Assembly (NCBI GenBank): GCA_965153355.1
Contig: OZ231126.1
Location: forward strand, 14,632,001-14,696,000
Reading direction: 5' to 3'
Source: Flaccisagitta enflata
Taxonomy: Eukaryota
Length of the DNA: 64,000 bases
Part shown: piece after piece, positions 25,001 through 28,784 of the stretch
Position numbering within the stretch: the stretch's first letter is position 1
Layout: every line of letters begins with the position of its first letter
Program-made: the position numbers and the translations under genes
Notes under the pieces: model-generated
What the model was told of the DNA's origin: nothing
What the model saw: the letters and a program-made list of their open reading frames with translations, nothing else
The model's database searches: none

Positions 25001-28000
25001 TAGCTCTGAGTTCACTATGATATCCCCCAAAAACATTTTTTCTCCTCTCTCCTGTAGACTTTTATTTCCGAACAAGTCTGTTGTTTCTCTTTCTCGACGC
25101 CTTGAAGAACCTCAAACATCAACTAAACTGAAAAGTTTTACCATGCTAGGTGTTTTAACTAGTTGATCGTATTCATGGAAAAACAAGGCCAAGTAGGCCA
25201 ACGATGCGTCCTCTTTGAATGAATGTTTTTATGAATGAATGTTTTCTATGGATGAATGTTTTTTATGAATGAATGGCATTTATGAATGAATAGATTATTT
25301 ATTGAATGAATTAGTAGATACAGTATGATTTTTTTGGAATGCAACATAAGAAACCTATATATTTCCGCTCCTGAGCATCGTAGCAAGATGCGGATTGCAC
25401 CATTGGATAGAGCACGAAAAACTATTTTTTCTATGTTATTTCTGATATCATGATGCATAATGACGTATCTCTACCACCAAGCCAGTAAAAACATTAGCAT
25501 CTTTAACATCTCGAAATTGGCTGTCTGATTCTCCTTCTAAAAAAGATAAGGAAGATCAGTTGATCAAATAATGGGTGATCATGAGGCCAGCTGAATCATG
25601 ACACAATTATTTTCTTATGTCTGTCCAGAAAATCACATGGGTGCCCCTTGATTGCTAAATATTTGGTCAACTGAACCTCCTCCTCTTTTTTAAGAGGGAG
25701 GATCAGACAGCTAATTTTTTGATGTTTGAGATGTCAACGTTTTTACTGGCATTGTGGTAGACATATGTTATGATGCATCACGGACTCAGAAAAACTATGG
25801 AAAAAATAGTTTTTCTTGCTCTATCTAATGGTGAAATCCGCATCTTGCTATGATGCTCAGGAGCAGAGATATACAGGTTTCTTATGTTGCATTCCAAAAA
25901 AATCATACTGTATATGCTTCTTTTACTGGATCAGGACCACACAAATAAACTTCCCCCATTGGCGCAATGGACTTTTGCGCTAGGGGCCTCCTTCACCAGC
26001 GCTGGTGTGTTTCTGGCCTCATTGCCCTAGTTACAATCTGGCTTTTGCAAACATGCTACCTTAGGCGCAGTTAGTTTTCTTAGCGCATTAGCGCACCAAG
26101 ACATAAGCGCATTAGCGCAAGTTCATTTGCTGGTTGCTCTCTGCCCCAGAGCAGTAGACACATTTTCTTAAGGGTTAAGACTTCATGGAATGAGTTGAAT
26201 AAGCTCATAGGAGTGCGCGTTTTTGTTTATGCGTCTATGAGTGTGTGTTTGTGCATGCGTGAGAGCCAAAGAGAGAGAGAGAAAGAGAGAGAGAGAGAGA
26301 GAGAGAGAGAGAGAGAGAGAGAGAGAGAGAGAGAGAGAGAGAGAGAGAGAGAGAGAGAGAGAGAGAGAGAGAGAGAGAGAAGAAAGAAAGAAAGAAAGAA
26401 AGAAAGAAAGAAAGAAAGAAAGAAAGAAAGAAAGAAAGAAAGAAAGGATAGAAAAAAAAGAAAAAAAGGAAAAAAAATTAAAGAAAAAAAAGAAAAAAAA
26501 ATAATGAGAGAAAAGCAAGCAGACAGACAAACACACATATTCTTATTTCAGACAGAGAGGCACAGACATACAGACAGACAGACTTACAGACAAACACAAA
26601 AACAGAATTACAACTTTTAGGTCTTACAGAGAGAAAAAAAGATAAAAAGAGACAAAATTGCAAAAAAGACAGAAAAGATTCATAGCAAAAAAATGACTGA
26701 AAAATATTAGCAGTGACAGACATACACAACCATGCTTCTCTCTGCTGACTTAAGACTAGATTCATTGCCTTTGAGTCTTGACATAACTAAAAAATTAAAG
26801 CTCTTGAAAATGCTGATACTGTTTTCAGAAATCAGTAAATGGCTAGGGGAATCACATTAGCGCATTACAAAGCGCATTTCCTAGCGCATTAGCGCATTAG
26901 CGCATTTGTTGAAAAGTGCAGATGAAGTTTAAGTTTCTAATAAATGTCAAGGGAGAAAAGCAGCCCTTGTAACTGGTAGGGCAAGTAGCGCACTGGCGCA
27001 AATGTCCGTTAAAGTTTCCTTGTGGACCACTTTTCTATTGAAAAAATGCATGATTTCGATGATTTTAATGAATGCGTTAGCCGATCAACCAACCGACCGA
27101 CCGACACAAGGAAACTTTAACGGACATTTGCGCCAGTGCGCTACTTGCCCTACCAGTTACAAGGGCTACTTTTCTCCCTTCATATCAAGTAGAAACTTAA
27201 ACTTCATCTGCACTTTTCTACAGGTGCAAATGCGCTAATGCGCTAGGAAATGCGCTATGTAATGCGCTAATGTGATTCCCCTAGCCATTTACTGCGCCTA
27301 ATTTCTGAAAACAGTATCAGCATTTTCAAGAGCTTTAACTTTTTGGAGAAGTCGAGACTCAAAGGCAATGAATCTAGTCTTTAGTAAGCAGAGAGAAGCA
27401 TGGTTGTGTATGTCTGTCACTGCTAGTCTTTTTCTGTCATTTTTTGCTATGAATCTTTTCTGTCTTTTTTTTGCAATTTTGTCTCTTTTTACCTTTTTTT
27501 CTCTCTGTAAGACCTCAAAGCTGTAATTCTGTTTTTGTGTTTGTTTGTAAGTCTGTCTATCTGTATGTCTGTGCCTCTCTGTCTGAAATCAAAATATGTG
27601 TATTTGTCTGTCTGCTTGCTTTTCTCTCTCTTCTAGTTTTTTTTCTATTTTTCTTTTTTTTTCCTTTTTTTTTTTTTTTTCTTTTTTTTCTTTTTTTTCA
27701 TTTTTTTACCTTCTTTTTTTTTTCTATCTTTACCTTTCTTTTTTCTATCTTTTTTCTTTTTTCTTTCTTTCTTTCTTTTTCTTTCTTTCTTTCTTTCTTT
27801 CTTTCTTTCTTTCTTTCTTTCTCTCTTTCTTCTTCTCTCTTCTTCTCTCTTCTCTCTCTCTCTTGGCTCTCACGCATGCACAAACACACACTCATACACG
27901 CATAAACTAACACAAGCGCACTCCTATGAGCTTGTTCAACTCAGTCCATGAAGTCTTAACCCTTAAAAAAATATTTCTACTGTTCTGGGGCAGAGAGCAA

Positions 28001-28784
28001 CCAGGAAATGAACTTGCGCTAATGCGCTTATGTCTTGGTGCGCTAATGCGCTAAGAAAACTAACTGAGCCTAAGATAGCATGTTTGCAAAAGCCAGAATG
28101 TAATTAGGGCAATGAGGCCAGAAACACGCCAGCGCTGGTGAAGGAGGCCCCAAGCGCAAATGTCCATTGCGCCAATGGGGGAAGTTTCTTTGTGACCGAC
28201 CGACCGACCGACCATCCAACGGACAGAGCCTATTATAGAAATGCGAGGACGCATCTAAAAATGGTAACCATAAGTGTCTTGAGTGATGAGGATACCATTT
28301 TTGTTCGATTTATTTCTAGAACACTGCGTTTTTGTAACTTTTCGACTTATTTCATGCACCTTTTATACAAACATGCCGCTGCCATGACGCCGCCTTGAAT
28401 GACGACGGCGACGAAACTGACGAGGATGAAATCCAGTTGATGATCCAAACGAATCACGATCGATTTACTCGAGTAAATCAATGCCGCGATCAAAGACAAC
28501 AAAACCCCGCGCCATTTGCCGAGAAGCCGACGAAATGCGCCGAGAGCGCCGCCATACTCAGATCCGGCGCCGCCATACTTGGCTCTGGCGCCATCACATT
28601 GAGCTCTGGCGCCGCCGTCGTCGTCGAAGCCAGTGCCAGAATAACGCTGATGGAGGGGCTGACTGTGTCCAGATGATGACATGGATTCGTTGGAGGGAAA
28701 TTCTGTCTCGTCGGTTATGACGTCATCTTTATCAAAAGTTGAGTTGGACTTTTTCGTTAAAAGAGGCAATTGTTCCATCGACAT
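16018..28784 (-). CDS. EamA/DMT-superfamily (SLC35G-like) membrane transporter, ~507 aa; exons 28784-28360, 24402-24182, 23980-23414, 16328-16018
   Basis: GT-AG boundaries with matching phases (2,1,1) give one open frame. Hydrophobic helices typical of EamA repeats: GVLLSLIAALIYSS, LAFKTTSVGDATAIYASNTIIIAMLG, GDLASLLSALAFSVWFLL, EDAAVCAIVAAVEIPATYFLEFFVF..PTLEAAGGALLVLAAVVGV. Start is uncertain: the frame stays open upstream to 29030. Confidence 0.85.
16852..17296 (-). repeat. 3' LTR
   Basis: Direct repeat of 22072-22516; TGTAAG...CTTACA ends. Confidence 0.95.
20010..21254 (-). CDS. gag: Gag-like protein (414 aa) of the LTR element
   Basis: First long ORF after the PBS. Capsid-like helical region (FIPIFENAC, LDKRARDLF, WAAIWAELKELL, ETFHALETRIKRAV, FRAALPKEYR), then a coiled coil and an Arg/Asp/Ser-rich tail; no CCHC knuckle seen. 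Confidence 0.75.
   Translation of the reverse strand: MPDPEDLAEPPAPAKVMANLNVNRPATSIPCNNFNSDVDHLPDFIPIFENACIVATNPSDDKKDSTFLQWFPIKLDKRARDLFKSINQANKSWAAIWAELKELLIDPQERYNWKAKKSTIKWDGKETFHALETRIKRAVDLFEDPAVVKSEYFFHFRAALPKEYRQAIDLGCEEDARTIENAKKCALRLRLALADDDDDATSSKNVAFSGAAMADEIENDCIEALEMSVQEMSLQMEEIRDSLAIDQNRRGPDRRDDTWSSRRRDYSQERNSPRHDDVGHSRHHDNDYRRRDESRGYGRSRDHDRCDRSSSRYDSRDCRSSIRYDSRDRQSSSKYDNRDRHDSRDGRDNYSRDSYHHDGRDHRGDPNRHDSRDGYCRERDRKIDNDERWDHRDYDRDYRSRERSPDRSSDDDYD
22072..22516 (-). repeat. 5' LTR
   Basis: Direct repeat of 16852-17296; PBS-like sequence follows on the minus strand. Confidence 0.95.
22545..23050. repeat. Four ~130-160-bp tandem units
   Basis: Recurring TTTTGGATCTAGGC...CAATTTCCTAT...AAGTCCCTGACGCGCG. 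Confidence 0.85.
25321..25910. mobile_element. Tc1/mariner-type palindromic MITE
   Basis: TA|CAGTATGATTTTTTTGGAATG...CATTCCAAAAAAATCATACTG|TA; long imperfect inverted arms. Confidence 0.85.
25940..27024. mobile_element. Non-autonomous TIR element, copy 1 (Transib/RAG-like ends)
   Basis: Ends CACAAATAAACTT...AAGTTTCCTTGTG, flanked by GACCA on both sides; homologous along its length to 27105-28194 in inverted orientation. Confidence 0.8.
27105..28194. mobile_element. Non-autonomous TIR element, copy 2 (inverted relative to copy 1)
   Basis: Ends CACAAGGAAACTT...AAGTTTCTTTGTG, flanked by ACCGA; inserted in an (ACCG)n tract. Confidence 0.8.

Follow-up and report, generated by a model that had tools for sequence, protein, structure and literature searches.

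Transib transposons are distinguished by target-site duplications (TSDs) of 5 bp and have the heptamer consensus CACAATG (Kapitonov and Jurka 2005, PMC1131882). Uneven terminal inverted repeats (TIRs) with spacings of 12/23 (±1) bp are given for Transib5 of D. melanogaster and for Transib2, N1, N2 and N3 of A. gambiae (Yakovenko et al. 2021, PMC8355894, from the data of Kapitonov and Jurka 2005, PMC1131882). For the RAG-like (RAGL) transposons of protostomes the end consensus is described as CACTWMCAAACKTYKBB, with AAA conserved at positions 8 to 10 and TSDs of invariably 5 bp (Martin et al. 2020, PMC7204232). Uneven ends are also described for ProtoRAG, in which the spacing is 27/31 bp (Tao et al. 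2019, PMC8289069), for AanRAGL, in which a 13-bp element and a 10-bp element are separated by spacers of 4 and 13 bp (Tao et al. 2022, PMC9435367), and for PflRAGL-A, whose ends have the order heptamer-TR2-asymmetric spacer-nonamer with a 10-bp asymmetry (Martin et al. 2023, PMC10462144). Non-autonomous RAGL elements, which consist of a 5'TIR and a 3'TIR without RAG genes, are reported from Pinctada imbricata, Ptychodera flava and Patiria miniata (PMC7204232; bioRxiv 10.1101/100735). Here we describe a short element that is present in two copies in a 64-kb stretch of Flaccisagitta enflata DNA (contig OZ231126.1 of GCA_965153355.1, positions 14,632,001 to 14,696,000), and which, judged by the features of its ends, is probably a non-autonomous member of the Transib/RAGL superfamily. 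The whole 64-kb stretch is called the window below, and all positions are window coordinates.

The two copies, each of about 1.09 kb, are mutually inverted with 80 bp between them. The two distinct ends of each copy are named end A and end B, and the two B ends face each other. The copies, their flanking repeats and their internal microsatellite are located as follows.

25935..25939, no strand: left TSD of copy 1, GACCA
25940..27024, plus strand: copy 1, 1085 bp, end A left and end B right; the similarity to copy 2 stops exactly at both termini
26262..26510, no strand: internal (GA)n/(GAAA)n/A-rich microsatellite of copy 1; its counterpart in copy 2 lies at about 27620-27860
27025..27029, no strand: right TSD of copy 1, GACCA
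27100..27104, no strand: left flank of copy 2, ACCGA, within an (ACCG)n tract; repeat lengths of 1, 5, 9 and 13 bp all fit
27105..28194, minus strand: copy 2, 1090 bp, inverted relative to copy 1, end B left and end A right
28195..28199, no strand: flank on the right of copy 2, ACCGA; here begins the (ACCG)n tract of an unrelated repeat of very high abundance

When the copies were aligned, the mean column identity was 92% and the similarity broke off at the termini. By blastn the identity was 93.7% on the A side, 92.0% in the middle and 92.9% on the B side, and no third copy or fragment was found in the 64-kb window. Neither copy has coding capacity. The sequence-only reading of this DNA had reported two copies with four ends, all of which were found where it placed them. 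The best explanation is a small non-autonomous cut-and-paste DNA transposon with TIRs, which belongs to a multi-copy family and is represented here by two separate insertions.

The B ends (26962-27024 and 27105-27167) are identical for 63 bp inward from the tip, against an overall difference of about 7% between the copies. This identity could be due to gene conversion within the 2.25-kb near-palindrome that both copies form, or to chance. The hairpin of the facing B ends (26964-27165) was also considered as a microRNA gene and rejected. Its matches to plant microRNA precursors in Rfam were below threshold, with MIR6135 at 57.8 bits against a gathering threshold of 99 and, in a narrower search, MIR2655 at 45.9 against 122; these are generic long-hairpin matches.

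All four ends have CAC...GTG termini, and each begins with CACAA. They have two blocks in common. The terminal block of 13 bp, CACAARKAAACTT, is composed of the heptamer CACAARG followed by AAACTT, and the inner block of 15 bp, AAYGGACWTTTGCGC, also written AAYGGACATTTGCGC, agrees among the ends at 14 of 15 positions in a MAFFT alignment. The two blocks are separated by 1 bp at end B and by 13 bp at end A, which corresponds to spacers of 12 and 24 bp when the ends are parsed as heptamer and nonamer.

25940..25952, plus strand: terminal block of end A, copy 1, 13 bp, CACAAATAAACTT; heptamer and AAACTT stretch
25953..25964, plus strand: 12 bases peculiar to end A, copy 1, CCCCCATTGGCG; a gap in the B ends by MAFFT
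25966..25980, plus strand: inner block of end A, copy 1, 15 bp, AATGGACTTTTGCGC
26996..27010, minus strand: inner block of end B, copy 1, 15 bp, AACGGACATTTGCGC
27012..27024, minus strand: terminal block of end B, copy 1, 13 bp, CACAAGGAAACTT
27105..27117, plus strand: terminal block of end B, copy 2, 13 bp
27119..27133, plus strand: inner block of end B, copy 2, 15 bp
28154..28168, minus strand: inner block of end A, copy 2, 15 bp, AATGGACATTTGCGC
28170..28181, minus strand: 12 bases peculiar to end A, copy 2; the MAFFT gap and the inverted-copy match
28182..28194, minus strand: terminal block of end A, copy 2, 13 bp, CACAAAGAAACTT

In the alignment of the four 60-bp ends, MAFFT placed a single 12-column gap, in both B ends and right after position 13, and therefore the 12-bp offset is objective and independent of the nonamer boundary. 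The sequence-only reading had said as much, calling the offset objective and the boundary a choice, and in this it was right. Its 12/24 parsing into heptamer, spacer and nonamer stands in part: the offset of 12 bp is real, and the parsing itself is one among several, with a 'nonamer' ACATTTGCG that is a poor nonamer for a recombination signal sequence (RSS). In the window, GGACWTTTGCGC with at most one mismatch was observed 4 times where 0.61 were expected, a count that 0 of 100 shuffles reached; CACAARKAAACTT was likewise observed 4 times, where 1.03 were expected and 3 of 100 shuffles reached this count. When CACNNNNAAACNT was used as a general signature it recovered no ends but the four already known, a number close to chance (4 observed against 3.81 expected), and no second family with such ends was found with it in the window.

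The additional 12 bp of end A are an inverted partial copy of the inner block and not a neutral spacer. When positions 14 to 31 of end A are reverse-complemented, 10 of 11 positions agree with TTGCGCCAGTG of end B, a score reached by 6 of 2000 shuffles. End A can be folded as a palindrome of -10.8 kcal/mol (z -2.17, 6 of 200 shuffles as good) and end B cannot (z -0.49). End A thus has the inner motif as a head-to-head doublet, and the offset arose through the extra motif copy. The segment carries a second, inverted motif centred on GCGC, and the first GCGC core lies 24 bp from the tip at end A and 26 bp from the tip at end B. The motif is also frequent further inward: GCGCA/TGCGC occurs 15 times in copy 1 and 14 times in copy 2, nearly always on one strand, whereas the remainder of the window has 0.89 per kb. 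Two arrays of it can be delimited in copy 1.

26065..26120, plus strand: subterminal GCGCA array on the A side of copy 1, mostly TTAGCGCA
26860..27001, plus strand: subterminal GCGCA array on the B side of copy 1, on the strand of the A-side array

It had been cautioned earlier that subterminal repeats could explain the offset. This caution is partly right, in that the additional 12 bp are one more copy of a motif whose GCGCA core occurs 15 times in copy 1 and 14 times in copy 2.

With CAC..GTG boundaries, 5 bp (GACCA) is the sole repeat length between 1 and 15 bp that fits copy 1. For copy 2, lengths of 1, 5, 9 or 13 bp fit and lengths of 2-4 and 6-8 bp are excluded; because the insertion sits in an (ACCG)n tract, ACCGA is compatible with a 5-bp TSD yet does not prove it. 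Both sequences had been proposed as TSDs before, and GACCA proves exact, with 5 bp alone fitting, while ACCGA is ambiguous. The alternative also mentioned there, AC termini with a 7-bp repeat that fits both copies, was confirmed by the boundary test: with AC..GT boundaries, 7 bp fits copy 1 and 3, 7 or 11 bp fit copy 2. For a 3-bp TSD the element would have to be extended by one base at either terminus, and the two copies do not agree in these bases. Both 5-bp sites have a G+C content of 3/5; in the 35-bp context it is 0.34 (copy 1) and 0.66 (copy 2), where the window as a whole has 0.42 (n = 2).

The assignment to Transib/RAGL follows from the 5-bp TSD, the CAC heptamer, the AAAC stretch resembling TR2 and the uneven two-part end, which has the same plan as that of RAGL elements. 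The heptamer agrees with the Transib heptamer CACAATG at 6 of 7 positions and with the RSS and ProtoRAG heptamers at 5 of 7 (consensus from PMC8289069). AAACTT occupies positions 8 to 13 of all four ends (AAAC positions 8 to 11) and fits the TR2 region described for RAGL ends. In a post-hoc comparison with the RAGL consensus, which is degenerate, 14 of the 17 positions agree in both A ends and 12 in the B ends. Of the 1725 other words in the window that start with CAC, a score of 14 is reached by 2 and a score of 12 by 68. The Repbase rule for the placement of non-autonomous DNA elements asks for an equal TSD length and for an alignment of positions 1 to 11 with a classified element at no more than one mismatch; compared with the printed degenerate consensus, positions 1 to 11 show two mismatches, at positions 4 and 7. 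The sequence-only reading had proposed a family mobilised by a Transib/RAG-like transposase; the CAC ends, the 5-bp TSD and the TR2-like stretch fit this proposal, which remains an assignment by ends.

Several observations weigh against this assignment. The TSD is unambiguous in one copy only. Positions 4 and 7 of the heptamer depart from the RAGL consensus. The likeness to the AanRAGL 13-mer, 9 of 13 positions, was dismissed as support and is uninformative, since 569 of the 1725 background words score at least as high because of (CA)n tracts. The inner block is not A-rich, and by hand count the 'nonamer' ACATTTGCG agrees with the RSS nonamer at 4 of 9 positions, with TT at positions 5-6. Given that the first GCGC cores lie at 24 and 26 bp, the two ends may be functionally near-symmetric. 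Pfam found no transposase family in 9 open reading frames (ORFs), chosen from the 80 ORFs of at least 120 amino acids in the window. Dense subterminal motif arrays on one strand are more typical of hAT, CACTA and P elements. Finally, the ends of RAGL families are described as sharing little beyond CAC (Morales Poole et al., bioRxiv 10.1101/100735), and a match of ends is therefore weak proof of RAGL membership.

Contigs from four sequencing runs (X1, X5, X6 and X13) were compared with 27870-28700, which comprises end A of copy 2 and the unique flank to its right. In this comparison the contig depth is not a copy number and the lack of a listed difference is not a proof of sameness; the constancy of end B was judged from the two window copies alone. 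In X6, the unique right flank (28234-28524) was matched with 0 differences at a depth of 84, and the run is therefore of the same species and possibly the source of the window; the summed depth per bin was 7,226-33,782 on the element side against 84-269 on the flank. The depth of the element was about 80 in X1 and at least 100 in X5, against up to 5.4 and up to 2 on the flank, respectively. We read the depth of the element, which in three runs of three studies is tens of times above that of the flank, as pointing to many copies, without putting a number to them.

Among the contig pieces listed, all 4 that reach the tip end at 28194 or 28195 and keep the terminal G at 28194; beyond it, 3 of the 4 run on for 23, 160 and 184 letters that do not resemble the window. 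Neither insertions nor deletions were recorded among the contigs in 27870-28194. Variable motif spacing, which the sequence-only reading had named as a sign against itself, did not appear at end A, where the contigs compared showed the 13-bp spacing without a length variant. In the terminal 45 bp of end A the only listed difference is A to T at 28152, present in all covering contigs (8 in X6, 6 in X5 and 1 in X1), and in 28153-28194 no position is recorded at which 10% or more of the letters differ. Copy 1 has the majority base at 9 of the 10 sites at which the contigs differ from copy 2, in keeping with two insertions that arose independently and have since diverged by about 3% each.

The A end of copy 1 has two oddities, T at heptamer position 7 (CACAAAT) and T in the 'nonamer' (ACTTTTGCG), which correspond to 28188 and 28161 in copy 2. 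No contig difference is recorded at either position, and both are probably private changes of copy 1. For this reason the family-majority end A is probably that of copy 2 with T at 28152, and the G/T and A/T in the earlier description of end A probably reflect these changes of copy 1. In X13 only pieces of 31-45 letters were matched, on the CA-rich 27876-27914; the element was not seen there, which is no proof of its absence. Searches of metagenome, genome and viral contig collections with the two-part end pattern returned 0 matches, as did a search of metagenome contigs with a 23-base internal stretch common to both copies.

Copy 2 is inserted into the microsatellite of the very abundant repeat to its right. 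This repeat (28195-28265) consists of the (ACCG)n tract and then about 45 bp ending in CATCTAAAAA. In X6 its summed contig depth rises to 5.4 million, where the unique flank has 84-269, and a large number of contigs stop matching it at 28219-28229 and at 28261-28265. The 35-base core of the repeat has one copy in the window.

If the element belongs to Transib/RAGL, its mobiliser would be a Transib/RAG-like transposase (RAG1L with or without RAG2L) supplied in trans. The transposase would recognise the CAC heptamer together with the adjoining A-rich, TR2-like stretch. Cutting at the CAC border would proceed by nick and hairpin and be followed by integration with a 5-bp stagger; we infer both this chemistry and the enzyme. 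That the 12-bp offset would also enforce preferential pairing of an A end with a B end, as in the 12/23 rule, we hold to be doubtful. Pairing of uneven ends by RAG-like elements is an idea already published (PMC10462144, PMC9435367, PMC8289069, PMC8355894). A more detailed form of it seems rather improbable: an enzyme of the RAG1L/RAG2L type would read the 12/24 geometry with a domain for the inner block and prefer A/B pairs, TR2 and 'nonamer' would both be used, and the palindromic doublet of end A would set the longer spacing. If it were true, the element would be a natural invertebrate transposon that obeys a 12/23-like rule, in a little-sampled animal lineage.

A Transib/RAGL element in which the offset has no role in pairing, an alternative that overlaps with the assignment preferred here, has close to an even chance. 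The extra inverted binding motif would be tolerated and about 15 terminal bp would be used. The origin of the extra segment as an inverted partial inner block, by the match given above, and the palindrome of end A are consistent with such a passive offset. Invertebrate RAGL enzymes are proposed to use mainly the terminal 15-17 bp and to be rather insensitive to asymmetry (PMC7204232), and for ProtoRAG it is reported that like-with-like end pairs lower recombination only moderately, but also that a shorter spacer strongly lowers activity (PMC8289069). A passive offset is harder to reconcile with the lack of a length variant among the contigs at end A, and with an inner block that is conserved at 14 of 15 positions at both ends though the copies differ by about 7%.

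Another or an undescribed superfamily, such as a relative of CACTA/Mirage/Chapaev or a P- or hAT-like element with a 7-bp TSD, is unlikely; the likeness to RAGL would then be a convergence on CAC. No transposase was seen among the 9 window ORFs scanned with Pfam, both copies can be read as AC..GT with a repeat of 7 bp, and the 14-15 subterminal GCGCA motifs recall the transposase-binding repeats of other superfamilies. In the Drosophila P element the internal transposase-binding sites are unequally distant from the two ends, the TSDs are 8 bp and the termini are different. TSDs are 2-4 bp in EnSpm/CACTA, Mirage and Chapaev and 7-8 bp in the P superfamily. That RAGL families share little at their ends beyond CAC (bioRxiv 10.1101/100735) also speaks for such a superfamily, and hAT elements are described with TSDs of 8 bp (PMC1131882). 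With CAC..GTG boundaries, however, both 2-4 bp and 8 bp fit neither copy, and 7 bp fits only if the element starts with AC and is flanked by a constant G and C. For 3 bp, the two copies would need unlike terminal bases. All 4 contigs listed have the terminal G at 28194, and hence CAC belongs to the element unless the target is always G-N5-C. Positions 8 to 13 agree, moreover, with the TR2 part of the RAGL consensus.

Ginger elements have 5'-TG...CA-3' termini. The element reads 5'-CA...TG-3' and not the integrase-type 5'-TG...CA-3', and its ends agree with the RAGL consensus as described. A Ginger2/TDD-type element, for which a TSD of 4 or 5 bp is characteristic (Kojima and Bao 2023), is thus very improbable; the 5'-TG...CA-3' rule is given in that source for related insertion sequence (IS) families. 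A local inverted duplication with chance repeats at its edges, in place of a mobile family, would suit two adjacent copies and none other in the window and has next to no probability, being contradicted already by the contigs of other copies, which in three runs show an element depth tens of times that of the flank and exit at the same terminus, by the differing flanks and TSDs of the two copies, and by the private changes of each copy against the family majority.

The window is animal-like in its other contents, with long microsatellites, a spliced kinase gene, a LINE reverse transcriptase and a Kelch gene like KLHDC2. A separate small element of about 590 bp (25321-25910) lies 24 bp to the left of the copy 1 TSD. 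It has inverted arms of about 230 bp that are 85% complementary, termini CAGTATGA...TCATACTG and TA on both sides, and looks like a miniature element of the Tc1/mariner type. A spliced protein-kinase gene is found on the minus strand (47670-54078), with kinase-motif exons at about 51926-52432 and 53677-54078; its last exon is an ORF of 976 amino acids of mostly low complexity (poly-Q, poly-R, poly-T and His-rich). A LINE-type reverse transcriptase lies on the minus strand at 62191-63999 in two ORFs split by a stop near 63180-63190. These ORFs match RVT_1 at 2.7e-12 and 3.1e-16, with look-alike clusters from Cnidaria and Chordata.

The Kelch gene (46027-47145, plus strand) has a single exon and encodes 372 amino acids. 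It was considered as RAG2-like and rejected, although its protein look-alikes included RAG2 clusters. The protein matches the KLHDC2/Kelch families of Pfam and no RAG2 family at E ≤0.01, and in the PDB search KLHDC2 is found at 4e-21 and no RAG2 chain at E ≤1. Among proteins of similar length in a library of 5.8 billion clusters, it has one match at E ≤1e-10, with 26% identity. Because of this single match, the host lineage appears to be poorly sampled.

RAG, the recombinase of antibody genes, evolved from transposons whose ends are built in a similar way. The origin of the 12/23 rule of V(D)J recombination is debated between a 'Transib seed' and descent from RAGL-A ends (PMC8355894, PMC10462144). 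Natural elements in which a CAC heptamer and a TR2-like stretch are combined with an offset of about one helical turn could each serve to test this origin. As the family is multi-copy and short, its ends may be used directly in cleavage or excision assays, given the cognate transposase. Without the cognate enzyme, it is at present one more putative non-autonomous family of the Transib/RAGL type. The 45-bp ends are a practical marker, which in an assembled host genome should lead to the autonomous element.

When end-sequence strings were searched in literature text, the matches listed were primers or unrelated sequence and none concerned transposon ends (figures and supplements lie outside such a search). 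For descriptions of RAGL ends from 2023 on, nothing further was found among the matches listed. Like the P element, the present element has internal motifs at unequal distances from its ends; unlike it, an 8-bp TSD is excluded here.

Like the V(D)J 12RSS and 23RSS, the element has ends that start with CACA and contain two conserved blocks, with an offset of 12 bp where that of the RSSs is 11 bp. Its heptamer agrees with CACAGTG at 5 of 7 positions, and its nonamer agrees with ACAAAAACC at 4 of 9 and is without the A-rich core (consensus from PMC8289069). RSS spacers are variable, whereas the first 6 'spacer' bases of the element (AAACTT) are conserved. The end of the element is a transposon end and not a gene-segment signal.

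Like the uneven Transib families, as described in the sources cited at the outset, the element has a 5-bp TSD, a heptamer of the CACAATG type and one spacer longer by about one helical turn; non-autonomous members are known among those families as well. The host of the element described here is a marine animal. The consensus nonamer of Transib is the A-rich AAAAAAATC, in contrast to ACATTTGCG of the element, and the AAAC stretch after the heptamer, which the element has, is described for RAGL ends. With AanRAGL, PflRAGL-A and ProtoRAG, as they are described, it has in common a CAC heptamer, a 5-bp TSD, an A-rich stretch after the heptamer and a second block at unequal spacing. Its inner block is GC-centred (GCGC), whereas that of PflRAGL-A is AT-rich, and TR5 of ProtoRAG is also unlike it. 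Further differences from these RAGL elements, in the published descriptions, are that the element is known without a linked RAG1L or RAG2L gene, that it has 14-15 subterminal GCGCA motifs, and that its additional 12 bp are an inverted copy of the inner block. Like the published non-autonomous RAGL elements, it is short, with RAGL-type ends, TSDs and no coding capacity; those were recognised, by the published accounts, through resident autonomous RAGL copies, and the element here by its ends alone. Since uneven ends are in print for ProtoRAG, AanRAGL, PflRAGL-A and several Transib families, and non-autonomous RAGL elements are published as well, this is a new family but not a new principle. What appears peculiar to the family is the combination of a near-RSS geometry with a TR2-like stretch, and an additional spacer built from an inverted copy of the inner block.

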